The notes: a model not told the origin generated them from the sequence alone. A DNA stretch of 64,000 nucleotides from Candidatus Enterousia sp. (GCA_045114635.1 JBGUKY010000008.1:39712-103711); one strand, 5' to 3'; shown: positions 2,797 to 47,690, counted from the first letter of the stretch. A program made the numbers and translations.

Positions 2797-2872
2797 TGGT
2801 GGCTGGAAGTAGAATCGAACTACTGACACAGGGATTTTCAGTCCCTTGCTCTACCAACTGAGCTATCCAGCC
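2797..2872 (-). tRNA. tRNA-Phe (GAA), CCA encoded
   Basis: The reverse complement folds as a 76-nt cloverleaf: GGCTGGA-TA-GCTC-AGTTGGTA-GAGC-A-AGGGA-CTGAAAA-TCCCT-GTGTC-AGTAG-TTCGATT-CTACT-TCCAGCC-A-CCA. The acceptor stem has 7 perfect pairs and the anticodon is GAA. Confidence 0.92.
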
Positions 2873-5457: not shown

Positions 5458-6759
5458 ATGCAAAAATTTTTTATACAAACTTTTGGTTGTCAAATGAATG
5501 TATATGACGGACAAAGAATTGCCGCCATGCTGGAAAAACACGGACTTACACAAACGGATAGTATTAGTAATGCCGACATAATAATACTTAACACATGTGC
5601 AGTACGCGCAAAGGCAACAGACAAAGTTTATTCTGCATTGGGACGCATAAGACGCGCAAAAAAAGAAACAGCCCTGCTTGGTATTGTTGGGTGTGTTGCA
5701 CGTGAATCAGGGAGTGATGCTTTCAAACGCATACCTGAATTAAACTTCGTTCTTGGACCACAAAGTTATCATAAATTACCAGAAATTATAAAGAACCCAG
5801 ACACTAAATTATTAAATATAGATTTAGGCGGTCTTGAAAAGTTTGATGAATTGCCACAAATGACAAAATCTCCACTGGTTGCATATATCCCAATTCAAGA
5901 AGGATGTAACCATTGTTGCACATATTGTATTGTTCCGTATACACGTGGTCGCGAATTATCACGTCCTTTTAATGATGTTATAAAAGATACTATCAATGCC
6001 GCAAAAACTGGTGCAATTGAAATATGTTTCCTTGGGCAAAATGTCAATGGATATAAATACACAGATGAAAATGGTAATCTTTATAAATTATCTGATTTGA
6101 TTCGCGAAACTGCTAAACTGCCAGAAATAAGCCGTATACGTTTCACATCAAGTTACCCAACAGAAATGAGCGATGACCTTATTGAAATGTTTGGTGTCGA
6201 ACCTAAATTATTACCATTTTTGAATATGCCAATACAAAGTGGTTCGCCACGTGTATTAAAACGTATGAATAGACCTGATGATATAGAAGCATATAAGAAT
6301 ATTGTTAATAAGTTAAAAACTGTCCGTCCAGACATTCAAATTTCGTCTGATTTTATTGTCGGTTTTCCTGATGAAAGTGATGAAGATTTTGAACACACTT
6401 TGGATATTGCACATGAAATAAAATATATAAACTCTTATTCTTTTAAATATTCACCACGTCCACATACTGCGGCGGCATTAATGCCAAATCAGATATCAGA
6501 ACAAATAAAATCTGTTCGTCTTCAAAGATTAGATTTACAATTAAATGAAAACCAACGCGAATTTAATATGTCTTGTATCGGCAAAGAAATGGTTTGTTTG
6601 TATGAAAGCGTTGATAAAACAGGAAAGCATCTTGTATTCCGTACGCCATATATGCAGCAATGCATTGTTGATAAACCAGACAATGAAATTGCACCATTAC
6701 AAAAAATAAAAATTACAGATGCAAACAAATCATGTCTGCGCGGTGAAATAATCAAATAA
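5458..6759 (+). CDS. miaB: tRNA-2-methylthio-N6-dimethylallyladenosine synthase
   Basis: N-terminal 'TFGCQMNVYD' (UPF0004 cluster), the radical-SAM motif 'CNHCCTYCIVP', and a TRAM-like C-terminus. Confidence 0.9.
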   Translation: MQKFFIQTFGCQMNVYDGQRIAAMLEKHGLTQTDSISNADIIILNTCAVRAKATDKVYSALGRIRRAKKETALLGIVGCVARESGSDAFKRIPELNFVLGPQSYHKLPEIIKNPDTKLLNIDLGGLEKFDELPQMTKSPLVAYIPIQEGCNHCCTYCIVPYTRGRELSRPFNDVIKDTINAAKTGAIEICFLGQNVNGYKYTDENGNLYKLSDLIRETAKLPEISRIRFTSSYPTEMSDDLIEMFGVEPKLLPFLNMPIQSGSPRVLKRMNRPDDIEAYKNIVNKLKTVRPDIQISSDFIVGFPDESDEDFEHTLDIAHEIKYINSYSFKYSPRPHTAAALMPNQISEQIKSVRLQRLDLQLNENQREFNMSCIGKEMVCLYESVDKTGKHLVFRTPYMQQCIVDKPDNEIAPLQKIKITDANKSCLRGEIIK

Positions 6760-6761
6760 AA

Positions 6762-8048
6762 TTAAAATTGAACTTTTGCGTTTAATGATAATTTATAATT
6801 CATGTCAAATTCATCTTTGAACATATCAATGGCTATAAATGCACCGGCATTATCCATAACAGATATAAAACCAGCATTTAACCCAAGATTCCAATAAGCC
6901 CGACTATTTATCGCGGTAGTTGCGCCGTATTCGTATTTGATACCATCTGATATAAAATTATATTTTGCCATTGTGCCAGCATGTAAATCTATATCAGAAT
7001 CCCTTTCATCCATAATATCAACATTTTGAAACATAATACCAACGAAAGGCGAAATTACAACTTCTGATATTTTCGTGTAATCGTATCCAATATCAAACCT
7101 TACATATTCAGATACACCGTTCGGATTATTTGAAACATTGCCGTTAACATAAATATCATCTGTATTAAAACTTGTACGATTAATACCAATTATTCCATCA
7201 AGCCAAATCAAATCTAGATATTGTCTTGCGCTGATATCAAGTCCATACGATATACCATCAAACTCATTAGTGTCATCTTGATAAGAAAAACGATTTATAT
7301 TACCCCCTATTTTGAAATATAAATCATCATATTTATCTGCAAAATAAATATGTCCACCATAATTGTTTATCTTATTAGAAAAAAGAACATCAATATCTGC
7401 ACCAGAATTACTACCCTGCTTTTTAGTTAAAAAGTTCAACATATTTGCACGATTGATTGTCTTGATCGGGTTCATCAAAACGGACGGATTAAAATGATAA
7501 GATGAATTCATTATCGAATTTATCTGATTCATATTGGACGCCCTGTCCATCGCTGCCAACATTTTATTATTCTGATTATTACTGCGCAGATTTTCAAGGA
7601 ATGTACCACGTGAATCTTTAAATACCTTTTGATAATTGGTTTCACGAACCAAATTCAAAAAGACATCATCATATACCGCAGTAAAACTTGTCCTGTATAA
7701 ACCATTTGAATCTTTGATTGTTATATCGTGCAACAGATCGTCACTTGTCAAGTGTGCAACTTTTGTACCGCTATTTACACTATCAATATTGTTTATATAC
7801 AATTTCACATCTGTTGTAAATTCAACTGTTGCCACCCAATTTTGCCAATCAGAAAAATTATTTATAACCACCGAAGAATTGGATATTACATATTTATCAG
7901 CAACAGTATCTGTAATATCTTCCAGTCGAATACGATCTAAATTTTCCACCTTTGCCACATGCTCTGTTCCAAAAGTTTCTACAGGAACCAATGCAAACGC
8001 ATCAGCACAAATAAACAACAGCAAAAGTGATACTAGGTATTTATTCAT
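6762..8048 (-). CDS. outer-membrane beta-barrel protein, autotransporter-beta-domain-like
   Basis: Signal peptide 'MNKYLVSLLLLFICADAFA'. The C-terminal half shows alternating beta-strand patterning and ends in '...LNAKVQF' (terminal Phe). Confidence 0.55.
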   Translation of the reverse strand: MNKYLVSLLLLFICADAFALVPVETFGTEHVAKVENLDRIRLEDITDTVADKYVISNSSVVINNFSDWQNWVATVEFTTDVKLYINNIDSVNSGTKVAHLTSDDLLHDITIKDSNGLYRTSFTAVYDDVFLNLVRETNYQKVFKDSRGTFLENLRSNNQNNKMLAAMDRASNMNQINSIMNSSYHFNPSVLMNPIKTINRANMLNFLTKKQGSNSGADIDVLFSNKINNYGGHIYFADKYDDLYFKIGGNINRFSYQDDTNEFDGISYGLDISARQYLDLIWLDGIIGINRTSFNTDDIYVNGNVSNNPNGVSEYVRFDIGYDYTKISEVVISPFVGIMFQNVDIMDERDSDIDLHAGTMAKYNFISDGIKYEYGATTAINSRAYWNLGLNAGFISVMDNAGAFIAIDMFKDEFDMNYKLSLNAKVQF

Positions 8049-8087
8049 AACACTTTTATACTAGCACACTGACATTTTTTTACACAA

Positions 8088-8113
8088 TAAAAAAAATCCC
8101 GCGTTACACGGGA
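8088..8113 (-). terminator. rho-independent terminator after the porin-family OMP gene
   Basis: On the minus strand, a hairpin with stem ATCCCG/CGGGAT is followed by T8. It lies 25 nt downstream of the stop at 8139. Confidence 0.5.
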
Positions 8114-8138
8114 TTTCAAAGCGAAACGAGGAAAGTTT

Positions 8139-8741
8139 TTAGAATTTATAACGAATACCAATATCACCACTGAAATCGTGCATTCCAGAAGCAACATCAA
8201 TATAATTATAACGTGCAGCGACTTCAACATTGAAACAACCAAAAGGCATTGATAATCCCAATGTTCCCATTGCTGAAAAGTTTGTATCAGATTTGCTTTG
8301 GTCTGCGGCCTGAATATCCAAGAAGGCAAGACCTGCACCAAATCCAACAAATGGTTGTATATAATGGAAATGCCATAAATCCATATATGCATTAGCCATC
8401 AATTCTATATTTTTGGATGATACGCCAACATTTTCAATATCACCAAATGCCCTATTTTTATTTCCTTTGGTAAAGAAAGATCCTTCAAGTTCCACACGTG
8501 TTTTGTCATATAAAGACAAACCTAATGCTGTACGAAGTTGATACACGTTTTGTGTTACATTTTCTTTTACGCCATTATAATCATAATTCAAACTACCGTA
8601 TGTAGCACCACCACGAAGCGCAACATATGGCAAAACATCCCAACCCAAAAAGCTGGATGTCTGTTGTTCATACATTTGACCACCTGCAAATGCTGGTGCG
8701 GCAAGTAATACTGCCATTGATGTGGCAATAAGTTTTTTCAT
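8139..8741 (-). CDS. porin-family / OmpA-like 8-stranded beta-barrel OMP
   Basis: The start is the ATG at 8741, preceded by GGAGAAACTT. Signal peptide 'MKKLIATSMAVLLAAPAFA'; C-terminus 'GIRYKF'. The pattern is like Omp25/OMP_b-brl proteins. Confidence 0.7.
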   Translation of the reverse strand: MKKLIATSMAVLLAAPAFAGGQMYEQQTSSFLGWDVLPYVALRGGATYGSLNYDYNGVKENVTQNVYQLRTALGLSLYDKTRVELEGSFFTKGNKNRAFGDIENVGVSSKNIELMANAYMDLWHFHYIQPFVGFGAGLAFLDIQAADQSKSDTNFSAMGTLGLSMPFGCFNVEVAARYNYIDVASGMHDFSGDIGIRYKF

Positions 8742-10308: not shown

Positions 10309-11619
10309 TTAGAACTTACGCTTTATACTTATACCATACGACCACTTATTATAACCAGGCATTGGTATATTTGACTCTTTCTCAGTATAACTGATGTTTA
10401 CGACCGGCATAAAGCCAAGCAATTCAATATGAGTATTAGCTACAGAGAAAGTATATTTCTGATAAGAAACCCTTTCTTTGACATGCATATGCTGACCATT
10501 TCTTTCAATATCTTGTTCACCGTCATAATCTATCCACGCTAAGAACGGTTCAAAAGATACTATGAAGGCATAAGGTAATTCCATACCAAAACCAATACCA
10601 AAACCGTATTCATAATTGGCATAAGAACTTTCTTTAGCGGTTTGACGTTCCAAATCACCACGTAATGAAATATATTTCGTAGAATCAATATAGTATGTAA
10701 AATGTGGTTCTGCTGAATATGTCTGACCATTAAACATATCATATTCATCATATTTATTATCCGTAACCATCAAAATCAAACCAGATGTCAATTTGCGTGT
10801 CAAATCATAATTGGTATCAATCTTGGCACCGTATGACCAACCAAGTTTTTGTTGCCCATACCAGGCACGACTTGCTACACCGGCAAACCAGATATCGCCC
10901 CTGTCCCAAACATAACGTGGACCAGTTGATGCAGACAAAGCCAAATCGTCATTCTTTTTATCCTTCAAATAAACATTTGTACCAAAAGCAGCATCACTTT
11001 TCCAACGCCACTGATCAGACAATTTGAATTCGTAATCAGCGCCCGCTGCAAAATATAAACCTGTTGTGTCTTTTGAATCTGTTATCGTTTCACAGGTACG
11101 ACCATCTTCATCGCCACCACAGCCACCATCGCCGTTTGACAGACTAGAACGGGTATCAGGCACATCACCATAATCAAACCAAAAATCCCAATTTTTATTT
11201 TTGCGCACCAAATATCTGTAAGATTCCAGCATTTGTTGTACATCTTCCGGTAAATTCTCAGCCGCCATAGCCAAACGTAAATTATAATCGGCACGATACC
11301 AACGATCATTGGCACCATAACATAAAGCCAATTCAATACGTGCACGTACAAAATCTGGACGTTCATCAAGAACTTTTTTGTAAAGACGTATGGCCTGTCT
11401 AAAATTGCCCTTTTTGCGTTCCATTTGCGCAGACAAAAACACCATTTTTTCTTTAACAGACAAGTCTGCCGGCAAAGGTATTTTTGCTAAAGCCGCCTGG
11501 GTTTCTTCGTTATCATATTGGGATACAACAATGTTGTTTTCCAGATTGTTTTGCGCCCCAGCTACCGAAACCATCGGTAAAGCCAAGACTATAAGTAAGA
11601 GTAATAATTTTTTTGACAT
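10309..11619 (-). CDS. TPR + C-terminal beta-barrel OMP, Slam/DUF560-like
   Basis: Signal peptide 'MSKKLLLLLIVLALPMVSVAGA'. An N-terminal TPR-like region (RQAIRLYKKVLDERPDFVRARIELALCY) is followed by about 280 aa of beta-barrel patterning ending 'ISIKRKF'. Confidence 0.5.
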   Translation of the reverse strand: MSKKLLLLLIVLALPMVSVAGAQNNLENNIVVSQYDNEETQAALAKIPLPADLSVKEKMVFLSAQMERKKGNFRQAIRLYKKVLDERPDFVRARIELALCYGANDRWYRADYNLRLAMAAENLPEDVQQMLESYRYLVRKNKNWDFWFDYGDVPDTRSSLSNGDGGCGGDEDGRTCETITDSKDTTGLYFAAGADYEFKLSDQWRWKSDAAFGTNVYLKDKKNDDLALSASTGPRYVWDRGDIWFAGVASRAWYGQQKLGWSYGAKIDTNYDLTRKLTSGLILMVTDNKYDEYDMFNGQTYSAEPHFTYYIDSTKYISLRGDLERQTAKESSYANYEYGFGIGFGMELPYAFIVSFEPFLAWIDYDGEQDIERNGQHMHVKERVSYQKYTFSVANTHIELLGFMPVVNISYTEKESNIPMPGYNKWSYGISIKRKF

Positions 11620-11660
11620 GTGTGTATTATAATGAATAAAATCCTAAAAAGCAAAAAAAT

Positions 11661-11690
11661 AAAAGGCCCAAAAAGTGGCCTTTTTATTTC
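11661..11690 (-). terminator. hairpin terminator downstream of tRNA-Lys
   Basis: AAAAGGCC...GGCCTTTT stem flanked by A/T runs, directly 3' of the tRNA on the minus strand. Confidence 0.5.
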
Positions 11691-11766
11691 TGGTGGACGC
11701 ACAGGGACTCGAACCCTGGACCCACTGATTAAGAGTCAGTTGCTCTACCAACTGAGCTATGCATCC
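11691..11766 (-). tRNA. tRNA-Lys (CUU), CCA encoded
   Basis: The reverse complement folds as a 76-nt cloverleaf: GGATGCA-TA-GCTC-AGTTGGTA-GAGC-A-ACTGA-CTCTTAA-TCAGT-GGGTC-CAGGG-TTCGAGT-CCCTG-TGCGTCC-A-CCA. Confidence 0.92.
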
Positions 11767-11824
11767 AAAACTATGTCGCAACTGATTATAGAATATTTTT
11801 GGGCAAAAGCAAGAGCTTTGTCGT

Positions 11825-13162
11825 TTATTTTCTTAAATACTGTGTCGGGTTGTATGCTTTTGTCCCCTTGCGAATTTCAAAGTGAAGTTGTGGTTGATCA
11901 ACCTTACCCGTCTTTCCAACACGACCAATTTGTGTTCCAACATTTACACGTGCACCACGTTTAACAGACATCGAATCAAGATGCGCATAAATTGTCATCC
12001 ATCCATCACTGTGTTGAATAATTATTAAATTACCCATACCCTTGACCTCGTTTCCGGCATAGGCAACCACACCGTTTTCTGCTGCCTTAACAGCAGTCCC
12101 AAGTGCAGCAGATATGTTTATACCATCATTAAACAGCCCGTTGTTTTTTGCGCCATACGCAGATAAAATCTTCCCTTTAACCGGCCACGAGAACTTTGAA
12201 CTTGAACGCGCAACAACCTTTGGTAATTGTTTATTTGGATCAGAAGATATTTTCTGTTTTGATTCACTTTTTACAACAGTTGTCTGTTTTGTTGCCACAG
12301 AACTTTCTTTTACTGTCGTCTTGGCTGGTGTTATTTTGGCAGTTGTTTTTATTTCTGATACAGATGCTGTTTTAACATTATCTAATTTTGGCACTTTGAT
12401 TTTTTGACCGATTGCCAAATCAAAAGGACTCGATATCTTGTTCATAACAGCCAAATCATTGACTGGTATTTCATATTTACGCGACAAAGAATAAAGTGTG
12501 TCGCCCTTTTGAACTGTAATTTCTTGTAAATCAACACGTTTAGTGCTGTTCGGTTTTACCGTTTCTTTTGCGACAACTTGTTCTTTGGTAATAACATTTG
12601 GAACCTGTTGTTTAACAGTTGCTGTGCGTTGTGTTTTTAATTTTTGACCAATTGATAAAGTATATGGTTCATGTAAATTATTTATTTGCGCAAATTCAGA
12701 AACAGTCATACCGTTTTTACGCGCCAATGAATAAACAGTATCACCTTTGACCACAGTAATTATATTATCACCCGCCTCTTTCTTTGGTGTGTCTTTATCT
12801 ATCACACCGCCGCCACCATACATTGGAACAATCAAATAATCATCTTGTGATTCTGCTGCTGCGATTTTTGTTTCTTCGCTTTCTGGAACCAATACATAAT
12901 CATCAATACTTGCATACAAAACATAATCGTTCACATTTGCAGATCCATATAATTCAGGCGATGCATAAACACCATAGTCTGTAACCGCAGAATTATAGAT
13001 TTCTGGTTGTGCATATGGATCCGCCAACAAGGCTGGATATCTGTCTTCAATAAACATACCGATATCATCTGGTATAGAAGCAATTTTTGGTTGTAAATCA
13101 CATGCACACAACACAAGTGCACACAAAGCAGACACTTTGAAAAAAGTTTTATACATTCTCAC
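11825..13162 (-). CDS. nlpD: LysM-LysM-M23 (LytM) lipoprotein, NlpD-like amidase activator
   Basis: Lipobox 'LVLCAC' and two LysM repeats (VVKGDTVYSLARKNGMTV..., VQKGDTLYSLSRKYEIPV...). The C-terminus is closely NlpD-like ('GNLIIIQHSDGWMTIYAHL', 'LHFEIR'), with 'NDGINI' in place of the HxxxD metal site. The ATG at 13156 is an alternative start. Confidence 0.85.
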   Translation of the reverse strand: MRMYKTFFKVSALCALVLCACDLQPKIASIPDDIGMFIEDRYPALLADPYAQPEIYNSAVTDYGVYASPELYGSANVNDYVLYASIDDYVLVPESEETKIAAAESQDDYLIVPMYGGGGVIDKDTPKKEAGDNIITVVKGDTVYSLARKNGMTVSEFAQINNLHEPYTLSIGQKLKTQRTATVKQQVPNVITKEQVVAKETVKPNSTKRVDLQEITVQKGDTLYSLSRKYEIPVNDLAVMNKISSPFDLAIGQKIKVPKLDNVKTASVSEIKTTAKITPAKTTVKESSVATKQTTVVKSESKQKISSDPNKQLPKVVARSSSKFSWPVKGKILSAYGAKNNGLFNDGINISAALGTAVKAAENGVVAYAGNEVKGMGNLIIIQHSDGWMTIYAHLDSMSVKRGARVNVGTQIGRVGKTGKVDQPQLHFEIRKGTKAYNPTQYLRK

Positions 13163-37539: not shown

Positions 37540-38316
37540 TTATGCGATACATTTTGTTGCAAAATCTATTATCGAACCATAAAGCACTGCAAAAAAGAAA
37601 CACACACTGCCCCCGATGACAAACAAGTGCCAAAGCGCATGTGCAAATTTCATCCTGCGCCATAAATAGAAAATAACACCAACCGAATAAGAAAGTCCGC
37701 CAGCCAAAACAAACCACATTCCACGTGCCGAGATTGTATGAATCATAGCTGGCAAAATCCAAAGTAATGCCCAACCCATAATTAAATACAAAGCAACCAT
37801 CCATTTTGGTTGTTTGCGCGGGCTGTGTATTTTCATAATAGCGCCAAATATAACGATGGCCCACATTATACCAAACATGGTCCACCCCAGCGCAGTATGA
37901 CCACATCGATTTAAATTAACTAATAAAAATGGTGTATAAGTTCCGGCAATCAATGCATATATTGCGATTGAATCCCATACTTCAAAAAAGCATTCACATC
38001 TATCACCAATTGTTGCGTGGCACATGGTAGAACCAAAATACAAAGAAAACATAGTTACACCAAATATTGAACACGCAACTGTTGCCCAAACATTATGATG
38101 AACAACAGCAAAAGCGACCAACAAACAAAGTGCAGCCATCGCCAAACCAATACCTATACCATGTGTTAAAATATTGACTGCTTCTTCAGCACGTGTAGAT
38201 GGACGTTCCCAACGGAACAAACCTGTCGCCTGCAAAACCTTTAACAATTTTGATGCGTGTTTATCTTTCTTTACAGCACGCAATTTCTGCTTTATAACCT
38301 TTTTAGTTTTAGTCAT
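37540..38316 (-). CDS. hemolysin III / PAQR-family membrane protein
   Basis: 'EEAVNILTHGIGIG' and seven TM helices. The ATG at 38316 is preceded by GGAGGG, whereas the track start at 38328 is a TTG. Confidence 0.85.
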   Translation of the reverse strand: MTKTKKVIKQKLRAVKKDKHASKLLKVLQATGLFRWERPSTRAEEAVNILTHGIGIGLAMAALCLLVAFAVVHHNVWATVACSIFGVTMFSLYFGSTMCHATIGDRCECFFEVWDSIAIYALIAGTYTPFLLVNLNRCGHTALGWTMFGIMWAIVIFGAIMKIHSPRKQPKWMVALYLIMGWALLWILPAMIHTISARGMWFVLAGGLSYSVGVIFYLWRRMKFAHALWHLFVIGGSVCFFFAVLYGSIIDFATKCIA

Positions 38317-39031
38317 TTTTCCCTCCAATACTTTTTACGTCAAATTCACAAAGTTGAACTGGTTCGATTTTTACATCAGAAAAATCACCACGCATATTTT
38401 TTATTCTTGTAATATATTCCGGTTTACCCATCATATCTTCCAAGACAAGACGTTGTGATTCATAATGTCCGCTACCAAATATCGCAAATACAGTATCATT
38501 TTTATTTAATGCAGCGGCTATATTTTCTAACATAAATCTATCACGTCCCTTACGTCCAAGATAATCACACATTTGGTTGTATATATCTCCATCTTTTTTC
38601 GATGGACCTGCCCGCAAAGCTTTATGTAATTCTTCATTTGTGATTTCTCTATCAGGAAAACCAGACTTCAAAACATCTATCATCTGATTGTCAGACAAAT
38701 CAGTAAACACCACAGGAACTTTATTTTTTGCTGCAACAGCAGACGCATAGGCAAGTGTATTATCTTGTAAACCATGCCATCCGAATTTGCGTTCATAGCC
38801 AGCGTTTTCCATTTCTGTTAACAAAATATCAGGCTTAATCCCAAAATCACCAGCAAAGCACATATCTACCATATTAAAAGATATGTTATGGCTATGAATA
38901 TCGCACATATACACCAAAGTTTTTTTATCACGCTTGAATATAGCTATAAATGCTGAATTACTTGCAAAATCTTTCGCTCTTACCGTATCTGCCCAATCAA
39001 CCAGTAAATCAAAATTTGGTTTAAAAAGCAT
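38309..39031 (-). CDS. hypothetical protein, weakly TraB/GumN-like
   Basis: 240 aa. 'GRDRFMLENIAAALNKNDTVFAIFGSGHYES' resembles the C-terminal R..M...I and G.GH motifs of TraB/GumN proteins. It overlaps the hlyIII-like start by 8 nt. Confidence 0.4.
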   Translation of the reverse strand: MLFKPNFDLLVDWADTVRAKDFASNSAFIAIFKRDKKTLVYMCDIHSHNISFNMVDMCFAGDFGIKPDILLTEMENAGYERKFGWHGLQDNTLAYASAVAAKNKVPVVFTDLSDNQMIDVLKSGFPDREITNEELHKALRAGPSKKDGDIYNQMCDYLGRKGRDRFMLENIAAALNKNDTVFAIFGSGHYESQRLVLEDMMGKPEYITRIKNMRGDFSDVKIEPVQLCEFDVKSIGGKND

Positions 39032-40676: not shown

Positions 40677-41345
40677 ATGGAAAAACAAGAATTAAAACAT
40701 TTAAAAGCAAACGAAATAAGAACCTTTGGTCGTCGGCATGGCAAAAAATTGTCAAACCGCAAACAGTGGCTTATGGATAATTTATTGCCAGAAATTGCGC
40801 CAAACTCCAAAGATTTGGGCAAAAAAGCCTCTATTCTAGAGGTTGGGTTTGGAAACGGCGAACATTTACGCGATTTGGCACTAAACAACCCCGAAAAACT
40901 TATCGTTGGCGCTGAACCTTTCGCAAATGGTGTTGCCGCCCTGCTTTCTGCAATCACCAACGAATCGGATAACAAACTGTTGAACGAATATAAAAATATT
41001 CGCGTATGGCCTGACGATGTTCGTTTGTTGTTGAAAGATTTACAAAATATCAATTTTGATGAAATATGGGTTTTACATCCAGATCCATGGCCAAAGGCAC
41101 GACACGAAAAACGCCGCCTTTTGAACCACGATTTCTTAAACCTTTTGTCAGAACATATGTCAAAAGACAGTCGTATTATCATTGGCACTGACCATTGGGA
41201 ATATTACGATTGGATTGTTGAACAATTAAAACAAACCAAACTTGTTATAAAATCGACCGAAATAGAAACAATAAAAACCAGATACCAAATAAAAAACAAG
41301 GCTGGAACAACCAACCCAAAATATCTGATTTTATCTGTTGCTTAA
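40677..41345 (+). CDS. trmB: tRNA (guanine46-N7)-methyltransferase
   Basis: 'LEVGFGNGEHL' SAM motif and 'HPDPWPKARHEKRRL'. Confidence 0.87.
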   Translation: MEKQELKHLKANEIRTFGRRHGKKLSNRKQWLMDNLLPEIAPNSKDLGKKASILEVGFGNGEHLRDLALNNPEKLIVGAEPFANGVAALLSAITNESDNKLLNEYKNIRVWPDDVRLLLKDLQNINFDEIWVLHPDPWPKARHEKRRLLNHDFLNLLSEHMSKDSRIIIGTDHWEYYDWIVEQLKQTKLVIKSTEIETIKTRYQIKNKAGTTNPKYLILSVA

Positions 41346-42031
41346 TAATCAAGGAAAAATTTTAATCTATCTGCCAGTTCTGGACGCAAACATTCGGTCA
41401 ATCTTATGACCTGATCAATTCTGTCGAAATTATTACCAAGAATAAAATGAAGTTCCCCATCAAAATTAAAATGTTCCAACAATCCGTAAATACGTCCAAC
41501 AAAATCAGAACGATTCCCCATATCTTCATCAAGAGTAAGCACCAAGGCATCAGCACGAATATCGCGTAATTTTTGAAATATAAAAACAAGATTGTTTATA
41601 TCTAAATCTTCTGTATCCAGCGCAATACATAAATCATGTCCAAAAAACAAATCATTACGAACGATTTGTAAACTTTCTATAAACCGTTCAAAATCACGCA
41701 TTTTTATAAATATTTGAACGCCAGTGGCCCCCGTTTTACAAACATTTGTGATAAAAGCCCCTAAATTATACATATCATCTTCTATATTTTTTGATTCCGG
41801 GCAAAAATCATAACGGGTCAATATCTTTACGCCCTGTTTTTCAAGATAGGTCCAAACATTTGGAACAGTAGCAGAAGGAACAGATATCAAATGTACATCA
41901 TTATCAACTATGTTTTCGCACATCAAGGCCAATTCATTTGTATCAGCGACATCATCACACCAAAGCGCTATTCTTTTGTCCGAATCAGAAAAAATTTCAT
42001 TTATTTCAATCATTTTATTCAAGTTTATCAT
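41342..42031 (-). CDS. hypothetical protein, possibly a degenerate DeoC-like TIM barrel
   Basis: 229 aa. 'HLISVPSATVPNVWTYLEKQGVKILTRYDF' and 'CIALDTEDL' roughly parallel DeoC strands, but I see no lysine at the Schiff-base position. The ATG at 42013 is an alternative start. Confidence 0.45.
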   Translation of the reverse strand: MINLNKMIEINEIFSDSDKRIALWCDDVADTNELALMCENIVDNDVHLISVPSATVPNVWTYLEKQGVKILTRYDFCPESKNIEDDMYNLGAFITNVCKTGATGVQIFIKMRDFERFIESLQIVRNDLFFGHDLCIALDTEDLDINNLVFIFQKLRDIRADALVLTLDEDMGNRSDFVGRIYGLLEHFNFDGELHFILGNNFDRIDQVIRLTECLRPELADRLKFFLDY

Positions 42032-42037
42032 AAAATA

Positions 42038-42046
42038 TGATAGAAT
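42038..42046 (+). promoter_or_regulatory. extended -10 box (TGATAGAAT) 9 nt upstream of the cassette's first ATG
   Basis: TGATAGAAT-agaaacgaa-ATG, with no clear SD. Confidence 0.3.
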
Positions 42047-42055
42047 AGAAACGAA

Positions 42056-42925
42056 ATGAGAAACAAATTAGAACATATTTTATTGTCTGTGCTTTTGGGG
42101 CTGTCTATTTTTTTGGCTCTGTCATTTTGGTTAAATACTATTTTCAATTTTAATATGTTCTGCATGGCCCATTGGGACGAACTTGCAAGATTACAGATTT
42201 CACACACACCTATTGCCACTGGGTTTTATGTATCTTTTGCAACCGCAATACTTATCTTTTTGGTTGGCGTATATTTAATCTATCGCCCCACAACGCGCCG
42301 TATACGCATTGTAAAACAAGACCAAAATACCCTATCACCAACCAATATTATCCCAAAGAAACAAGATATTGCACCAGTCGTTGAACCTGTGTTTGATGCA
42401 CATCGTCCGCCACGTCTGAATTTACCAAAAAACATGGCACAAATCGTGGCACAAAATAATGCGAAAAAAGAACAAGAATCCGTACAAAAAAAGACCGGAC
42501 CTTCTGAAAATCCTTATACTTCTGTGATATCGGAAATATTTTCTAATGCCGGATATATTGTAAAACCTAATCCGATTATTTCTGGCTTTACACCAAATTT
42601 ATTTGCTATTGCCAAAGATGAAAATGTTTGGATTGGTGCCATAGATTGTGATTTGGATAAAATGATTAACGCAATTAACAAATTACAATCTGTATTTCAA
42701 GATACTTTGGAAGACATTCCAATTTATATACACGCTTTCATTTTAGACACAATGAATAAATATGATTCTGAAAATTCTTCTGTCTTGATTTTCAAATCAA
42801 TTGATGAATTGAAATCATTCGTTGATAAAAATCCTGCGGGACAAGTCGATGAAGAAGAACAAAGCAGTTTTGATTCATATTCTGAATATATTGATACAAT
42901 AATACAATATATTAAAAACATATAA
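42056..42925 (+). CDS. hypothetical membrane protein with a soluble C-terminal domain
   Basis: Two or three N-terminal TM helices and a low-complexity linker. The C-terminal domain 'EIFSNAGYIVKPNPIISGFTPNLFAIAKDENVWIGAID' has a restriction-endonuclease-fold-like layout, but an E-x-K motif is not evident. Confidence 0.5.
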   Translation: MRNKLEHILLSVLLGLSIFLALSFWLNTIFNFNMFCMAHWDELARLQISHTPIATGFYVSFATAILIFLVGVYLIYRPTTRRIRIVKQDQNTLSPTNIIPKKQDIAPVVEPVFDAHRPPRLNLPKNMAQIVAQNNAKKEQESVQKKTGPSENPYTSVISEIFSNAGYIVKPNPIISGFTPNLFAIAKDENVWIGAIDCDLDKMINAINKLQSVFQDTLEDIPIYIHAFILDTMNKYDSENSSVLIFKSIDELKSFVDKNPAGQVDEEEQSSFDSYSEYIDTIIQYIKNI

Positions 42926-42936
42926 AGGAACCATGA

Positions 42937-43443
42937 ATGCAATTAAATGAACATTCTGCACTAGAAAAACTTGGTATGCTTGGTATGGATGATATACCTG
43001 TAATTGCTTACACACCGCAAAAATGTTCTTTGGGCAACGATTGGTTTAAAAAGTATTCTGTGTTGCGTCGTGAATTTTTATCATCTTTGACTGATTCTAT
43101 TGAAGAAATCGCTTTTATGAATTTACCCCAAGAAGATTTTATAAATTTAATAATGGGCAAATCTTTACCAGATAATCTTTCAATACGATTCCGAATACCT
43201 TTGCTTTGGGGCGGTGATTTGGACATATCAAATATGTTCTTGTGTTGGACATTTCCGCATTCTTACAATATGGATCGTTTTATCATAGACCAAAGCGATG
43301 CCAGAATAATATATTTACCAAACCCTGAAAAAAAGGTTTACGTCACATCTCATACTGGTGGTGGCGGAGATGGCGGAAACGCAACTTCAGACAGACTAAG
43401 TCAAATTGCTTTCAATGCTATGGCTGCACGGGGAAATGAATAA
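42937..43443 (+). CDS. hypothetical protein with an HNH-like (beta-beta-alpha-Me) string
   Basis: 168 aa. 'RFRIPLLWGGDLDISNMFLCWTFPH' parallels the HNH consensus H-IP...GG.....N...LC...H, with the first His replaced by Phe. The tail is Gly-rich ('GGGGDGGN'). Confidence 0.4.
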   Translation: MQLNEHSALEKLGMLGMDDIPVIAYTPQKCSLGNDWFKKYSVLRREFLSSLTDSIEEIAFMNLPQEDFINLIMGKSLPDNLSIRFRIPLLWGGDLDISNMFLCWTFPHSYNMDRFIIDQSDARIIYLPNPEKKVYVTSHTGGGGDGGNATSDRLSQIAFNAMAARGNE

Positions 43444-43444
43444 A

Positions 43445-43879
43445 ATGAAAAAAGAAGAATTTTTATCTTTGATAAAATCACGCGGTGCCAAAATTTTTAC
43501 ACCTGGTACTTTGACTAATATAAGTATCGCGAATACAAATCTTCAAAATATGCGTGCCGCAATGATCCCTGCTTTTCTACAAGATTTTTATACTTCGTCT
43601 TTTGGTATAGTTTTGGGATCTGCATGTATATTTGGTCCACAAGAAATTGAACGTGGAACAAAATATCCATTACCAGACATTGCAAAAATCAATAAAGATA
43701 TGGTTGGAAATAAAAACCTGTTTGGAAAAACGGTTTTTGGACGAAATGACTTATTTTGGTTTGCGTTCGACGCCTCAGGCACATGTTTTATGTTGGATAA
43801 TTTAACACTATCTGTATTACGTAAATATGATGATCCCTATCGCGCAATGCTTGATTGTTTAATTGTTGGGAAAATATAA
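43445..43879 (+). CDS. hypothetical protein, SMI1/KNR4 (SUKH)-like
   Basis: About 144 aa. 'IPAFLQDFYTSSFG' and 'FGRNDLFWFAFDASGTCFMLDN' resemble the two conserved SUKH segments. It starts 1 nt after the upstream stop; the ATG at 43436 is an alternative. Confidence 0.4.
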   Translation: MKKEEFLSLIKSRGAKIFTPGTLTNISIANTNLQNMRAAMIPAFLQDFYTSSFGIVLGSACIFGPQEIERGTKYPLPDIAKINKDMVGNKNLFGKTVFGRNDLFWFAFDASGTCFMLDNLTLSVLRKYDDPYRAMLDCLIVGKI

Positions 43880-43880
43880 A

Positions 43881-44093
43881 ATGCATAAAATATCAGTATC
43901 TTTATCTGGTCATCAAACAAGCATCTCTTTGGAACAAGAGTTTTTTGATGTACTTCAACACATTGCTAAATTACGCAATATATCTGTTGCTTCCATTATA
44001 AAAAGCATCGATGAAAATCGCGATCCAGAATCTAATCTTTCTTCTGAAATAAGGATATGGATATTAAAACAAATATTGAAAACATCAAAATAA
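43881..44093 (+). CDS. ribbon-helix-helix protein (COG4321 / RHH_4 type)
   Basis: 'ISVSLSGHQTSISLEQEFFDVLQHIAKLRNISVASIIKSID...NLSSEIRIWIL' closely follows the conserved alphaproteobacterial RHH_4 pattern. Confidence 0.75.
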   Translation: MHKISVSLSGHQTSISLEQEFFDVLQHIAKLRNISVASIIKSIDENRDPESNLSSEIRIWILKQILKTSK

Positions 44094-46041
44094 ATGCCAT
44101 CCATAAATCGCGACCTATTATTCTGTAGGGCGTCATATGTGCGCCCCAAACAAAACCATCTAAACTGCCTGTTTGTTTTACAGGTATCAAAGATGTAATG
44201 CTTCCATCTGCACCAATAAATGCACTTATTCCTGAATAATTAGATCTTACAATTGGCAAACCAGATTCAATCGCATATCTGCGAACCATATCAAGATGTT
44301 GGTATATGCCTGGTGTTGAACCAAACCAAGTATCATTTGTTATATTTATTACAGCATCTGGTGTTACCCCTTGCGGAACCAAAGAATCAGTAAAGATTAT
44401 TTCATAACAAATTGCTGGTGAAAAAGAAAAATCACCATGTATTGTATTTATTGTTATAACATCTTTATTTGTGCCCGCAGATAAATCAGCTGGTGCTGGA
44501 ACAAATCTTCCGAAAGGTCCATATTCCCCAAATGGAACCAGATGAGACTTATCATAAATATTGTTTATCATACCAGTATTATTCGCAACAACCAACGAAT
44601 TATACATCTTACCATCACTATAATGATTTGCCCCCATAATAACATTTGTATTCAACAAACGTGATAAAGGAAACTTTTTATCTATAACAACATATGGATA
44701 TGCAGTTTCAGGATATACTATCAGGTCAGGTCTTACACTGTCATCTTCGGTTGCCCATATAAATAAATCTCGCACTTTTTGTTCTGCTACTGCATGCGCT
44801 TCTTCACGTGTTTTTGACATTTTATACATTGCAGATTCTGCAGGTTGTACTATTCGTATTAATGGCGCATTATCCATATCATAAGCATCATCCAATTTCA
44901 TATTATAATGACCGTATAAACACCCCACGCTAAATAAAAGGATATATGTAATAAACACAAACAAATTTGTTTTTGAATTATTTCTGATTATTTCAACAAA
45001 AGATGCTATCAAACCAATTATAACAAAAGTTAAACCCAAAGCCCCCCACAAAGACATTGAATTGGCAACCATTGGCATATTCATTGTGATATTTGCAATA
45101 GGGTTCCATGGAAAACCAGTTAAAAACCATTCACGGCCCCACAAAACCAATGTCCAAGCAGCAGCGAACAAAACTGCACGTGATGCTGGTTTTCTTGATG
45201 TGTATCTAATAACAGCAAATGGCAAAGAAAGAATAGCGCCACACAACAACCCTATTCCAACCAATGCCGGTATTGTCCAAATTGCAAATTGCGCTGTTAA
45301 TTCTGGAATAACATAGATAGAATTAAGAACCCACCAAAACATCGCAATACCATAAAAAGCACCAAATGGAAAAGACAGCAAATAAGATTTCCAAAAACTT
45401 ATCTTATTTGTTTGCTTTGTTATCAATGCGTACATTGATCCAACACCAAATAAAGACAACATCCATAAATTAAACGGAGCAAAACCAAAAGCAGTTATGA
45501 CGCCCAACAAAGATGCGCTTATATACCACCAAAAACCATTTTCACGGATTTTTATTGATTGAAGTTTATGGATTAACTTGCATGATCCGCAAGATATATC
45601 ACACACAATTACATCATCTGCATAAGGGTTTTTATATCCTAACTTTTTTAATATTTTTATTTCTTTAGATTCCATTATTGCGGCATCTTTGTCTTTGATA
45701 TGATCGTATCCTTGAAGATGCAACATTCCATGAACAACCATATGTACAGTATGTTCTTCAACAGAAATACCTGCCTGCTTTGCTTCGCGTTTTACAGTAT
45801 CAAGGGATATAAAAATATCACCCAACAACACATCATCACCCAATTCAAAAGACAAAACATTTGTTGGTTTATCCATACCACGATATTGTTTATTTAATTT
45901 ATGAATTTGTTTATCATTAACAAGAGTAATCGAAACTTCCGCTTCTTTGTGTACAGGTAAAACCGCCGCATTTGCGATTTTTTCAAAATCTATTTTATAT
46001 TTTTTCCAACTATTATTTTCTATATTAACATAAACTTGCAT
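44032..46041 (-). CDS. ybeY/lnt: in-frame fusion of endoribonuclease YbeY (aa 1-~142) and apolipoprotein N-acyltransferase Lnt (aa ~165-669)
   Basis: The YbeY part carries 'HGMLHLQGYDH' and a normal '...LGYKNPY' end, with no stop codon after it. The ORF continues into Lnt TM helices and the nitrilase-like domain with 'VYPETAYP' (E), 'YDKSHLVPFGEY' (K) and 'SPAICYEIIF' (C). Confidence 0.8.
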   Translation of the reverse strand: MQVYVNIENNSWKKYKIDFEKIANAAVLPVHKEAEVSITLVNDKQIHKLNKQYRGMDKPTNVLSFELGDDVLLGDIFISLDTVKREAKQAGISVEEHTVHMVVHGMLHLQGYDHIKDKDAAIMESKEIKILKKLGYKNPYADDVIVCDISCGSCKLIHKLQSIKIRENGFWWYISASLLGVITAFGFAPFNLWMLSLFGVGSMYALITKQTNKISFWKSYLLSFPFGAFYGIAMFWWVLNSIYVIPELTAQFAIWTIPALVGIGLLCGAILSLPFAVIRYTSRKPASRAVLFAAAWTLVLWGREWFLTGFPWNPIANITMNMPMVANSMSLWGALGLTFVIIGLIASFVEIIRNNSKTNLFVFITYILLFSVGCLYGHYNMKLDDAYDMDNAPLIRIVQPAESAMYKMSKTREEAHAVAEQKVRDLFIWATEDDSVRPDLIVYPETAYPYVVIDKKFPLSRLLNTNVIMGANHYSDGKMYNSLVVANNTGMINNIYDKSHLVPFGEYGPFGRFVPAPADLSAGTNKDVITINTIHGDFSFSPAICYEIIFTDSLVPQGVTPDAVINITNDTWFGSTPGIYQHLDMVRRYAIESGLPIVRSNYSGISAFIGADGSITSLIPVKQTGSLDGFVWGAHMTPYRIIGRDLWMAFILMFSIFVLISISLFQKKD

Positions 46042-46052
46042 TTTATTTTTCC

Positions 46053-47690
46053 TTATGCCGTATAACCATCATTTGAATAATTTGTATAATCATATGAATG
46101 ATTTTGTTTTTCTTTTATCTTTAAAATCCCGTCATTAAAAGCGATTGTTTTTAATTTGTCTTGGTCTGAATACTGCAATTGTTGATAGATGCTGTATTTG
46201 TTATTTCTTAACCCTTCCAAAATTTCTGGTGGCAAAAAATCTTTTACACGTTCACGCGTATTAGGAATATTGCCTATATTACCTTTGTTGTCTCTTGTCT
46301 TTGGATTTCTTAACCATTCTTTGAATGCTGCATATGTAGATGGTATTGGTTCCCAACCATGATCTGTTTCTTGCCATAAAATTTGTTTTCTTATCGTGTT
46401 ATCTTTTTTATAACCACCCATAAATTTAAAGAAATCGGCACAACCATTCGCAGGACAATCTAATAAATCATACGGATCTATTTGACCACTTAACAATCCA
46501 GCTTCCAACCATCTGCGCCAAAAGATACCGCCACCTTCAAGAAAATAGCCACTTAAACTATTCGCTATCTCATCTGGAGATTGATGGTTTAACCACTCAT
46601 CCCCAAAAGAACGCGACCCTGTTATAGGGTATCTTGCAAAACAATCTAATATTATAGAATCTGGTATATTTGCCCCATAACACATTTTACCGTTTTTTCC
46701 ATCCCTGTACTGTCGTAATTCTTCAAAACGTTCTTTGTTATTTTTATTTCTAGGGTTTTCTACTAGTTTATTTGCGGTATTATAAAATATAGAGCCCATT
46801 CCAACGGCTTCATTTGTTGTATTTAATAATAAATCATTGTCATATACATAATACCAATATAATAATGGATACGTTTCATAATCTTCTATATGCCAACGGG
46901 CCAGTTCATAAGCCTCTTCATCTGTTATTGGTTCTGTATATCTATTCACATGCGTCCCATCTTTAAGAACAGTAGAACCAAAACCAATTGTCCAATTATT
47001 TTCACTATCTTTATATGGTTTATGTAAATGTGGTTTATTAGCCGGATTCAATCCTTTCTTTTTGCACACAGATTCATATAAAGCTTTTTCTTTTTTATTA
47101 TTAACATCAAGTAATTTAACGCCTTCTTTAGATATTAAATCAGTGATTAACAATGGTGTCACAGGTTTTAAAGTTTCTTTAAATTCTTTAAAACTTAATG
47201 TTCTTTTTACAGTGTGTTCTACATAATTATCTTTTATACTACCATCATCATTGTTATATTGCGCAATTTTTGTTCCTCCAATAACCATACCCGTGAACAA
47301 ACTATAAACCATCCATAACTGCAATCGTGCCGCAGCCTTTGGATGAGAGATTTTTAATTTTTTAAAAAATTCTATAAATTTAGAATCAGCATTCTTTATT
47401 TTAATATCTTGATTCTTTGCTTTTAATTTCTCTATTATCTTATTATCAAAGAAAATCGTATTTAAATCTTTTACTGTATACTTCCCAAGACAAAATAAAA
47501 ACCATGCTAAATCTATACCAAGCAAACCGGCGGTTCGACTTACTTCATGTACATCTTTTTCGGGTTTCCATTGTTTTATTTTTTGATAAACAGGTTCCAA
47601 TTTGCCTTTATCGCCATGTAGGTATTCATGGCGCGATTTCAATTTCGATGCAATTTTTTTAACCTCGTCTAATAAAGACATAAATTTCAC
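46053..47690 (-). CDS. membrane-anchored, expanded GH24-lysozyme-like protein
   Basis: 545 aa with hydrophobic segments near aa 55-70 and 125-140. 'SKEGVKL', about 30 aa, then 'PYKDSENNWTIGFGST' parallels T4-lysozyme '[21 protein letters not shown]'. A later 'GGIFWRRWLEAGLL' parallels 'GL..RR..E..L'. Confidence 0.5.
   Translation of the reverse strand: MKFMSLLDEVKKIASKLKSRHEYLHGDKGKLEPVYQKIKQWKPEKDVHEVSRTAGLLGIDLAWFLFCLGKYTVKDLNTIFFDNKIIEKLKAKNQDIKIKNADSKFIEFFKKLKISHPKAAARLQLWMVYSLFTGMVIGGTKIAQYNNDDGSIKDNYVEHTVKRTLSFKEFKETLKPVTPLLITDLISKEGVKLLDVNNKKEKALYESVCKKKGLNPANKPHLHKPYKDSENNWTIGFGSTVLKDGTHVNRYTEPITDEEAYELARWHIEDYETYPLLYWYYVYDNDLLLNTTNEAVGMGSIFYNTANKLVENPRNKNNKERFEELRQYRDGKNGKMCYGANIPDSIILDCFARYPITGSRSFGDEWLNHQSPDEIANSLSGYFLEGGGIFWRRWLEAGLLSGQIDPYDLLDCPANGCADFFKFMGGYKKDNTIRKQILWQETDHGWEPIPSTYAAFKEWLRNPKTRDNKGNIGNIPNTRERVKDFLPPEILEGLRNNKYSIYQQLQYSDQDKLKTIAFNDGILKIKEKQNHSYDYTNYSNDGYTA

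Follow-up and report, generated by a model that had tools for sequence, protein, structure and literature searches.

We examined a 64,000-nucleotide stretch of a Candidatus (Ca.) Enterousia sp. genome (GCA_045114635.1, JBGUKY010000008.1:39712-103711; this whole stretch is hereafter called the window), in which four consecutive open reading frames (ORFs), designated g1 to g4, form a compact operon. The operon encodes a predicted inner-membrane protein (g1), a small protein related to HNH-type toxin domains (g2), a relative of the YrhA family (g3), and a ribbon-helix-helix (RHH) protein (g4). Profile comparisons indicate that g2 and g3 are related to a toxin-immunity-type pair of Escherichia coli, the C-terminal domain of YhhZ (YhhZ-CT) and YrhA. 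In other lineages, relatives of g2 and g3 lie directly downstream of virD4, which encodes a coupling protein, and these relatives of g2 carry histidines that are not conserved in the clade of the window. Coordinates are collected in Table 1.

Table 1. Positions of the operon genes, of other features in the window, and of related loci (aa, amino acids; nt, nucleotides)
Sequence	Feature	Position	Strand	Remarks
Window	g1	42056-42925	+	289-aa ORF
Window	g2	42937-43443	+	168-aa ORF
Window	g3	43445-43879	+	144 aa; ATG within a longer TTG ORF from 43406
Window	g4	43881-44093	+	70 aa; ATG within a TTG ORF from 43863
Window	Palindrome TATCAT-AAAAT-ATGATA	42026..42042		Between g1 and the divergent gene, which are 24 nt apart; candidate operator
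Window	virD4/TraG-family coupling protein	27931-30198	+	755 aa; 12 kb upstream of the cassette
Window	Divergent gene	41342-42031	-	229 aa; between trmB and g1, 24 nt from g1
Window	ybeY-lnt fusion ORF	44032-46041	-	669 aa; convergent; overlapped for 62 nt by the 3' end of g4
Window	Gene directly after virD4	30218-31411	+	397 aa
Window	ORF between HlyIII and gltX	38309-39031	-	240 aa
Window	Gene in the slot beside ybeY-lnt	46053-47690	-	545 aa
Window	tRNA gene	2800-2872	-	
Window	tRNA gene	11694-11766	-	
L086	g1-like, g1-like, virD4, g2 (long form), g3	g2: 6001-7272		
L087	g1-like, g1-like, virD4, g2 (long form), g3	g2: 6001-7083		
L088	RHH_4, g1-like, virD4, g2, g3			
L094	g1-like, virD4, g2, g3	g2: 11514-12116		
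L093	g1-like, virD4			Without g2 and g3
L089 and L080	g1-like, g2, g3, RHH_4			Without virD4; contexts unrelated to that of the window
L084	g2, g3			Without virD4, g1, or RHH_4 nearby
L083	E. coli K-12 yrhA, split by IS1E	7039-8310		
L090	Plasmid HNH gene followed by YrhA family gene	6377-7930		
L091	Plasmid HNH gene followed by YrhA family gene	6359-7936		
L002	Gene in the slot beside ybeY-lnt	11117-11530		ROS/MucR regulator
L006	Gene in the slot beside ybeY-lnt	11111-12994		627-aa TPR protein
L004	Slot beside ybeY-lnt			Empty

Organization and conservation of the operon

The gaps g1/g2, g2/g3, and g3/g4 measure 11, 1, and 1 nt, respectively, and all four genes lie on the plus strand. Purine-rich motifs resembling Shine-Dalgarno sequences precede g2, g3, and g4, and no terminator-like site was found inside the g1-g4 operon. 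A first-pass annotation of this DNA had described four same-strand ORFs forming one operon, and the ORF coordinates bear this out. A promoter scan was uninformative, as it returned fewer sites than shuffled controls. No RNA family of Rfam matched near the locus, the base composition of the operon showed no anomaly relative to its flanks, and a repeat search did not find mobile-element boundaries around the operon.

The same four-gene order was found at 75 GTDB species-level loci from gut Alphaproteobacteria, comprising Ca. Enterousia and its relatives. The gene-neighborhood check suggested in the first-pass annotation therefore shows that g1, g2, and g3 co-occur well beyond the window. On long contigs, the order reads gltX-trmB-(223 aa, minus)-g1-g2-g3-RHH_4-ybeY/lnt, with one orthologue per genome locus. 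Homologs of g2 form more than 400 clusters, all of ~168 aa, from metagenome-assembled genomes of gut and rumen Alphaproteobacteria including Ca. Enterousia, which NCBI places under Alphaproteobacteria incertae sedis. The gene set also occurs in bins titled Bacteroides fragilis, Muribaculaceae, and Bacteroidales (L065, L077, and L080), which are probably mis-binned or mislabeled; L065 shows full alphaproteobacterial synteny despite its title.

We next considered the ratio of nonsynonymous to synonymous substitution rates (dN/dS). Across the cassette genes, dN/dS ranged from 0.01 to 0.24 overall. The values were 0.01-0.11 for g2 and 0.06-0.11 for g3, compared with 0.05-0.14 for trmB and 0.08-0.20 for ybeY-lnt. 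Together with the shared order at 75 loci, these ratios indicate that g1 to g4 are real genes and not chance ORFs. Median identity to the window was 60% for g2, 60% for g3, and 68% for g4, and in the flanks it was 65% for trmB, 59% for ybeY-lnt, and 76% for gltX. Two genes evolve faster, namely g1 (36%) and the divergent upstream gene (40%). PADLOC returned no matches for g1-g4 or the divergent upstream gene, and no relatives of g2 were found in phage genomes. Synteny, housekeeping-like constraint, and the lack of repeats, PADLOC matches, and phage relatives form the opposite of the pattern seen for polymorphic toxins or defense islands. The initial description of the cassette as an orphan, stand-alone, defense-type module is thus not supported: synteny extends over 75 species, the evolutionary rate is as low as that of trmB and ybeY-lnt, and PADLOC holds no matching defense system.

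Relationship of g2 and g3 to YhhZ and YrhA

Direct searches with g2 gave little. No Pfam model matched any of 28 g2 homologs, with 0 of 28 matching an HNH model at E ≤ 1, and PDB sequences yielded no match to a g2 profile. When 1.84 billion representatives were searched exhaustively with HMMER, only 70 g2 relatives emerged. The distant relatives fell into two groups, short forms of 184-225 aa and long forms in which an N-terminal MW(D/E)WS motif and a P/Q-rich disordered linker precede a C-terminal g2-like domain. We refer to the His-bearing, virD4-adjacent forms as A-type. In the virD4-adjacent relatives (L086, L087, L094, and P0273-P0291), the N-terminal MW(D/E)WS is invariant, and in most forms it is followed by a P/Q/Y-rich low-complexity linker, for example PQPYAPQSYAPQPY repeats. 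The window g2 is a stand-alone protein without this MWDWS/PQ extension.

The long forms connected g2 to YhhZ. In profile-profile comparisons using hhalign, the g2 profile of the window clade aligned with the A-type long forms at 99.5% probability (E 2e-22), and the A-type long forms aligned with residues 250-384 of YhhZ at 98.6% (E 1e-15). A combined profile of the g2 superfamily aligned with YhhZ residues 254-384 at 98.1% (E 7e-14). By way of these intermediates, the alignments make g2 a homolog of the HNH-type toxin domain at the C-terminus of E. coli YhhZ.

An AlphaFold2 (AF2) model of g2, built from an alignment including distant relatives, reached a predicted local distance difference test score (pLDDT) of 87.5 and a predicted template modeling score (pTM) of 0.79; an earlier run with a shallow alignment of close homologs reached a pLDDT of 55 and was not used. 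The core of the model consists of a β-strand (residues 81-85), a loop, a second β-strand (100-104), and an α-helix (105-117). In Foldseek searches with this model, HNH/His-Me proteins dominated the top ranks in PDB and BFVD, with every match at E ≥ 0.9 and aligned cores of ~40-60 residues. The top PDB ranks included Cas8-HNH, Cas9 HNH, the Rhs2-CT toxin, ZRANB3, and McrA, and those in BFVD were phage HNH endonucleases.

In the core alignment, YhhZ and its plasmid homologs read VHHK..GGTN..NLVLI.N.PYH. Among A-type forms, H84 is invariant, H109 is kept, and H113 is nearly invariant. In the window clade, R84 and D113 are invariant, position 85 is F, position 109 is S or A, and position 108 is variable, so that no conserved histidine is left. 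The structural asparagine N99, the GG turn, and the prolines are kept. On this residue pattern, the g2 nuclease looks dead in the window clade. The earlier label "HNH-like" for g2 can stand in the sense of homology to the YhhZ HNH-type domain via intermediates, but not in the sense of a conserved histidine motif or a Pfam match, and the assumption that g2 is a nuclease is not supported, for the same two reasons.

The C-terminal tail of g2 (residues 141-168) consists of a G-rich loop, GGNATSDR (GG-x4-DR), and a helix, and it is as conserved as the core. Neither YhhZ nor the plasmid HNH proteins have this tail, which is unique to alphaproteobacterial forms. AF2 modeled it with low confidence, as one would expect if the tail folds against a partner.

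The protein encoded by g3 was easier to place. The window g3 matched NCBIfam NF038335 (YrhA family) over nearly its full length with 27.1 bits (E 3e-6), and 24 of the 28 clade members examined matched the same model (best E 3e-9). The curated cutoff of NF038335 is 55 bits. Distant g3 homologs scored above it, at 66.6, 63.7, and 57.3 bits, and the g3 partners that pass are those of L086, L087, and L089. Because the window g3 scores below the cutoff and its distant homologs above, it is best described as a divergent YrhA relative, not a member by the curated rule. An hhalign comparison of the clade-only g3 profile with the IS1-truncated K-12 YrhA fragment had given no match, and the YrhA link came later from the NCBIfam scans; judged by those profile scores, the relationship is solid.

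Similarity of g3 to SUKH proteins is plausible but sub-threshold. SMI1_KNR4 matched 4 of the 28 members (best E 0.002) and SUKH_6 matched 2 of 28, all below threshold. With a broad g3 family profile, the top PDB match was Listeria 2ICG (E 0.04), which we take to be a SUKH structure, and the clade-only profile found nothing among PDB sequences. The SUKH-like layout attributed to g3 at first therefore retains some weak matches, but the YrhA family is the stronger fit. The statement that the first three genes match no family that could be named with confidence is no longer tenable for g3.

YhhZ itself carries a TssD/Hcp domain at residues 1-147 and a C-terminal extension with a weak PF01844 match (E 0.005). 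In E. coli K-12, yrhA directly follows yhhZ and is interrupted by the insertion sequence (IS) IS1. Removing the IS restores a 164-aa ORF, and the reconstructed YrhA scores 122 bits on NF038335. The insertion, an IS1E copy, is accompanied by a 9-bp target duplication, GACATTAAA. A YrhA-like gene directly follows a YhhZ-CT-like gene in the window, at the 75 clade loci, and at L080, L084, L086-L089, and L094; in E. coli K-12 and in both of the plasmid loci examined, it directly follows a YhhZ-CT-like HNH gene. With g2 related to YhhZ-CT and g3 to YrhA, the g2-g3 pair is homologous to a toxin-immunity-type pair. The toxin/immunity "grammar" recognized in the first-pass annotation is thus supported as ancestry, but its reading as a stand-alone nuclease or defense module is not.

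The isoelectric points (pI) of the two proteins differ from those of the E. coli pair. The polarity of the E. coli pair, which most long-form pairs share, is that of a basic toxin, YhhZ-CT (pI 9.5), and a very acidic partner, YrhA (pI 4.3, net charge -12.5). The window clade instead combines an acidic g2 (median pI 5.4, range 4.6-9.1) with a basic g3 (pI 9.0 in the window; clade median 8.6, range 5.0-9.5). Since an acidic g2 and a basic g3 are still charge-complementary, the two proteins probably still bind each other. By the same token, the window g2 would no longer resemble a DNA-binding nuclease, nor g3 an acidic inhibitor.

The His-bearing g2 relatives also matched plasmid genes annotated "HNH endonuclease" (tblastn E 1e-10 to 4e-8). 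The plasmid HNH gene occurs on 458 enterobacterial plasmids, 433 of which are predicted to be conjugative. In both plasmid loci examined (L090 and L091), a "YrhA family protein" gene follows the HNH gene. On L091, a conjugative plasmid of type MOBH/MPF_F, the pair adjoins TraG-N and TrhH. Its position beside transfer genes links the HNH-YrhA pair to type IV (conjugative) machinery as well.

The g1 and g4 genes and linkage to virD4

In several lineages outside the window clade, relatives of the cassette genes are arranged around virD4 (Table 1; gene assignments at these loci were confirmed by hidden Markov model and BLAST comparisons). A member of the g1 family lies directly upstream of virD4 in five lineages (L086, L087, L088, L093, and L094), and g2-g3 lie directly downstream of it in four (L086, L087, L088, and L094). 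The L093 and L094 loci lie on chromosomes, with rluD-like, rpoH-like, yacG, rng, maf, and dksA genes around them. A virD4 gene is also present in the window; its product matches PF02534 (E 4e-49), PF12696, and PF10412 and shares 47% identity with the VirD4 of L094, whose gene is flanked by g1-like, g2, and g3 genes. The remark that the cassette lacks a delivery component needs correction on this account: no N-terminal delivery domain is present in the cassette proteins, but relatives in four lineages are arranged g1-like-virD4-g2-g3, and a virD4 gene lies in the window. The genes of 369-373 aa that precede virD4 were considered as VirB11 candidates and rejected, as they have transmembrane (TM) segments and no ATPase match. 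Directly after the window virD4, and before an LpoB-like gene, lies a gene for a 397-aa protein that is unrelated to g1 or g2; it also follows virD4 in L002 (64% identity).

Hydropathy analysis of g1 identified two hydrophobic segments, with five K/R residues after TM2 against one in the loop. By the positive-inside pattern, the C-terminal domain should be cytoplasmic (N-in/C-in). In the clade alignment, the periplasmic loop is short and conserved, and a variable Pro-rich linker with RPPRLN.P at its end precedes the C-terminal domain (residues 150-289), which is acidic (pI 4.1). The window g1 had no Pfam match, including NERD, and a PDB profile search with the g1 family found nothing. The g1 clade profile, however, aligned at residues 157-231 with the virD4-adjacent family (hhalign 98.2%, E 3e-14). 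This virD4-adjacent g1-like family is large and alphaproteobacterial, with at least 760 clusters, and some members are annotated NERD or carry PF08378. Weak PF08378 matches were obtained for 2 of 30 g1-family members, and the window clade does not conserve the D...D-x-E acidic positions of the virD4-adjacent relatives. Plasmids yielded no relatives of the g1-like protein. We therefore rejected a direct Pfam assignment of the window g1 to NERD and retained the indirect family link, regarding g1 as a probable 2-TM inner-membrane protein with a cytoplasmic domain that is NERD-like but degenerate. The earlier description of a 2-3 TM protein with a soluble C-terminal domain agrees with this for two TM segments, although the protein is not wholly without family. 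An identification of g1 as VirB8 or VirB10 was also rejected, because the 2-TM N-in/C-in topology places the domain in the cytoplasm.

As the first-pass annotation had it, g4 is an RHH DNA-binding protein. It matches RHH_4 (PF13467) at residues 3-64 with 75.3 bits (E 3.9e-21), well above the gathering cutoff of 25. RHH_4 homologs are also present in the distant modules L089 (E 2e-22) and L088 (E 2e-9). The palindrome upstream of g1 coincides in part with a TAnAAT -10-like box and with the start codon of the minus-strand gene. It matches exactly once in the window, and the pattern occurs just upstream of g1 at 63 related loci, once per locus (L015 has one extra match). Conservation across 16 aligned loci is higher in the 24-nt intergenic block than in the coding DNA on either side. 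As a dimeric RHH protein encoded by the last gene of the operon, g4 is the obvious candidate to bind this palindrome and probably acts there as an autoregulator.

The operon had been placed between trmB and ybeY-lnt. Both genes do flank it, but a conserved divergent gene for a 229-aa protein sits between trmB and g1. This gene is present in clade loci at 28-78% identity and is conserved solely within the clade of the window; no match was found in Pfam, NCBIfam, PADLOC, or PDB. It may be part of the module. On the other side, YbeY (an rRNA-maturation RNase) and Lnt (apolipoprotein N-acyltransferase) occupy residues 11-137 and 165-618 of the fusion protein, and the fusion, of 665-670 aa, is kept in all related loci examined. 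The slot between ybeY-lnt and an MgsA-like AAA gene varies among loci. In the window it holds a gene for a 545-aa protein with a weak phage-lysozyme domain, and elsewhere it holds other genes or none (Table 1). The 240-aa ORF between HlyIII and gltX shows weak TraB/PrgY/GumN and ChaN (Tiki-superfamily) similarity; its slot is filled in L004 (280 aa) and empty in L002 and L006. Two tRNA genes were the sole Rfam matches in the window.

Possible roles of the module and comparison with known systems

The reading that we favor, tentatively and at somewhat less than even chances, is that the operon is a VirD4-associated module derived from a toxin-immunity pair, now non-catalytic, which has a membrane role together with g1 and VirD4 and is autoregulated by g4. 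It would represent an old gene set of uncultured Alphaproteobacteria built around the coupling protein VirD4 and composed of a 2-TM NERD-like g1, a YhhZ-CT-type g2, a YrhA-family immunity-type g3, and often an RHH_4 g4. The ancestral unit may have been a coupling-protein-associated HNH effector with a YrhA-type immunity protein and a NERD-like membrane partner. The g1-like-virD4-g2-g3 order, the retained histidines, and the MW(D/E)WS motif of the relatives fit a coupling-protein-linked nuclease effector with its immunity protein. In the window clade, this set has been separated from virD4, g2 has lost all catalytic histidines and the N-terminal extension, and the charge polarity of g2 and g3 is inverted.

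Despite the loss of histidines and the charge inversion, the operon is tightly packed and under strong purifying selection, from which we infer that g2 and g3 now form a non-catalytic heterodimer. Rather than being a DNase toxin, this heterodimer would most likely work alongside g1 and VirD4 at the membrane, where it could be a substrate of the coupling protein, an adaptor for it, or its gatekeeper. VirD4 would act in trans with the cassette, as suggested by the gene neighborhoods in other lineages, and g4 would repress the divergent promoter region through the palindrome. A stronger version holds that this is an ancient, chromosomally fixed, VirD4-centered system of gut and rumen Alphaproteobacteria not previously described, and that in the Enterousia-type clade a dead nuclease and a former immunity protein have become an indispensable heterodimer, swapped in charge, by which the coupling protein is controlled or fed. 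We regard this version as possible but rather doubtful. If it is true, a secretion or DNA-transfer machine has taken up a toxin-immunity pair as one of its structural parts.

Several observations weigh against the reading we favor. The weakest point is that VirD4 is the only type IV component seen near these genes: neither the window nor the related loci showed a VirB4 or VirB8-11 gene, and Pfam matched none of the neighbors of virD4 in the related loci. The window virD4 is 12 kb away and is flanked by none of the four cassette families. The link to YhhZ depends on the intermediates, as the window clade alone aligned with YhhZ at 7% probability, in the same register. The charge data are heterogeneous, as seen in the wide pI ranges of both proteins in the clade. 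Loss of the histidines argues against HNH chemistry but does not prove that g2 is non-toxic; the invariant D113, N99, and R84 could support another activity, and a strictly retained immunity-type partner is also expected if g2 is still toxic.

These last points lead to the alternative that g2-g3 is an active effector-immunity pair, in which g2 is toxic by other chemistry and exported via VirD4 and a type IV secretion system (T4SS), g3 protects the producer, g1 helps recruit g2, and g4 regulates. We consider this unlikely, but it is the main alternative. The pair is homologous to a toxin-immunity-type pair, its immunity-type gene is strictly retained and probably translationally coupled, and the His-bearing relatives lie directly after virD4. 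The conserved GG...DR and helix tail of g2, confined to alphaproteobacterial forms, could be a secretion signal, and reviews document T4SS-delivered antibacterial effectors with immunity proteins in Xanthomonadales. On the other hand, the window clade has no conserved histidine, its acidic g2 and basic g3 are the reverse of the canonical pair, and the N-terminal MWDWS/PQ extension is missing. Housekeeping-like constraint and fixation in 75 species also speak against an active pair, although conserved core effectors do exist. Should g2 remain a toxin, it would be the defining case of an HNH-fold toxin whose action does not depend on histidines.

Another idea is a relaxosome-like complex that processes DNA for the coupling protein. 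Here a DNA site would be marked by the RHH protein, DNA would be processed or held by the HNH-like and NERD-like proteins, which the SUKH-like protein would restrain, and VirD4 would pump the substrate. The module does unite an RHH protein, a type IV coupling protein, and two nuclease-fold proteins. RHH_4 heads the g1-like-virD4-g2-g3 cluster in L088, the window VirD4 has a TraG-D_C domain, which according to Pfam is the TraM recognition site, and enterobacterial HNH-YrhA pairs lie beside transfer genes on conjugative plasmids. TraM is itself an RHH accessory protein. However, no origin-of-transfer-like element or relaxase was identified, the window g2 lacks catalytic residues, and the NERD-like motifs of g1 are not conserved in the clade. 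As the context is that of chromosomal housekeeping genes without element boundaries, and the closest characterized relative is a toxin and not a relaxase, we find this idea improbable.

It is quite improbable, in our view, that the operon serves a housekeeping function peculiar to its lineage and independent of VirD4, such as one in the envelope or the cell cycle, and that virD4 adjacency elsewhere is historical. The operon behaves like a core gene set, the cassette lies among housekeeping genes 12 kb from virD4, and L084 has g2-g3 without virD4, g1, or RHH_4 nearby, all of which would be in keeping with such a role. Adjacency to virD4, however, recurs in five lineages for the g1 family and in four for g2-g3 across a deep divergence (VirD4 47% identical), which is hard to explain without a functional link.

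Nuclease-fold domains such as HNH and NERD are common in defense systems, and the series of toxin-like gene, immunity-like gene, and RHH protein recalls type II toxin-antitoxin operons. Even so, a stand-alone nuclease-immunity, toxin-antitoxin, or anti-phage module unrelated to secretion, as first proposed, is very improbable, given the lack of PADLOC matches, phage relatives, and catalytic residues, a distribution that is not patchy but fixed in 75 species and conserved beside virD4 in other lineages, and purifying selection equal to that on housekeeping genes.

Returning to the module that we favor, a domesticated g2-g3 pair would provide a tractable example of conflict systems recruited into cellular machinery. 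It would also suggest that YhhZ-type toxins are delivered by both type VI secretion system (T6SS) and T4SS routes. Literature searches returned no description of a virD4-coupled YhhZ-CT/YrhA pair or of a His-less derivative, nothing useful on RHH_4/PF13467 or on Enterousia/RF32 with T4SS, and no function for the plasmid HNH-YrhA pairs.

Among known arrangements, the icmP(dotM)-icmO(dotL) genes are alike in that the gene directly upstream of the coupling-protein gene encodes a membrane protein whose C-terminal domain is cytoplasmic, with small soluble partner proteins encoded nearby. In Legionella, DotM is the membrane partner of the coupling protein DotL, and IcmS-IcmW are adaptors. Sequence similarity was not detected (the PDB profile search with the g1 family was empty), and the likeness is one of analogy only. 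Like SUKH immunity proteins, g3 is small, cytoplasmic, and encoded directly after a nuclease-fold toxin-like gene; unlike them, it matches SUKH models below curated thresholds and shows neither arrays of immunity paralogues nor diversifying evolution. The cassette differs from polymorphic toxin systems in that g2 has no delivery domain and its dN/dS of 0.01-0.11 shows no diversifying selection.

The X-Tfe/X-Tfi systems of Xanthomonadales, in which antibacterial effectors, including the nuclease TfdA, are recognized by VirD4 and accompanied by immunity proteins, are the same in concept: a toxic effector with an adjacent immunity gene is what the virD4-adjacent A-type g2-g3 pairs would fit. They differ in that no homology is shown, the bacterial class is another one, the window copy is His-less, and no complete T4SS was seen. 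The defining XVIPCD domain was not evident, although no search aimed at XVIPCD was made. The plasmid HNH-YrhA pairs share sequence similarity with the His-bearing g2 relatives but are plasmid-borne, keep the HH motif intact, have another N-terminal region of ~200 aa, and are without adjacent g1-like or RHH_4 genes. The occurrence of this pair across enterobacterial plasmids, most of them predicted to be conjugative, itself appears undescribed.

The nearest known counterpart is YhhZ-YrhA, of the Hcp-ET1/ETi1 type, with YhhZ a putative orthologue of the characterized Hcp-ET1 (locus AAF13_24945), which reviews describe as a T6SS2-delivered predicted HNH-DNase with a cognate immunity protein. In both systems a toxin-like gene is followed by a YrhA-like gene, the g2 family aligns with the YhhZ C-terminus, and the g3 family and YrhA fall in NF038335. 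Unlike YhhZ, the window g2 has neither Hcp nor another delivery domain at its N-terminus. The window clade has R/F...S...D where YhhZ has HH...H, and the charge polarity is inverted. The cassette also has the additional g2 C-terminal tail, a 2-TM NERD-like protein, RHH_4, and core-operon inheritance. The component families are thus known, and what appears to be new is the combination of a YhhZ-CT/YrhA pair with a NERD-like membrane protein coupled to virD4, together with a core-behaving, His-less, charge-inverted derivative in a whole gut-associated clade, which appears not to have been described before.

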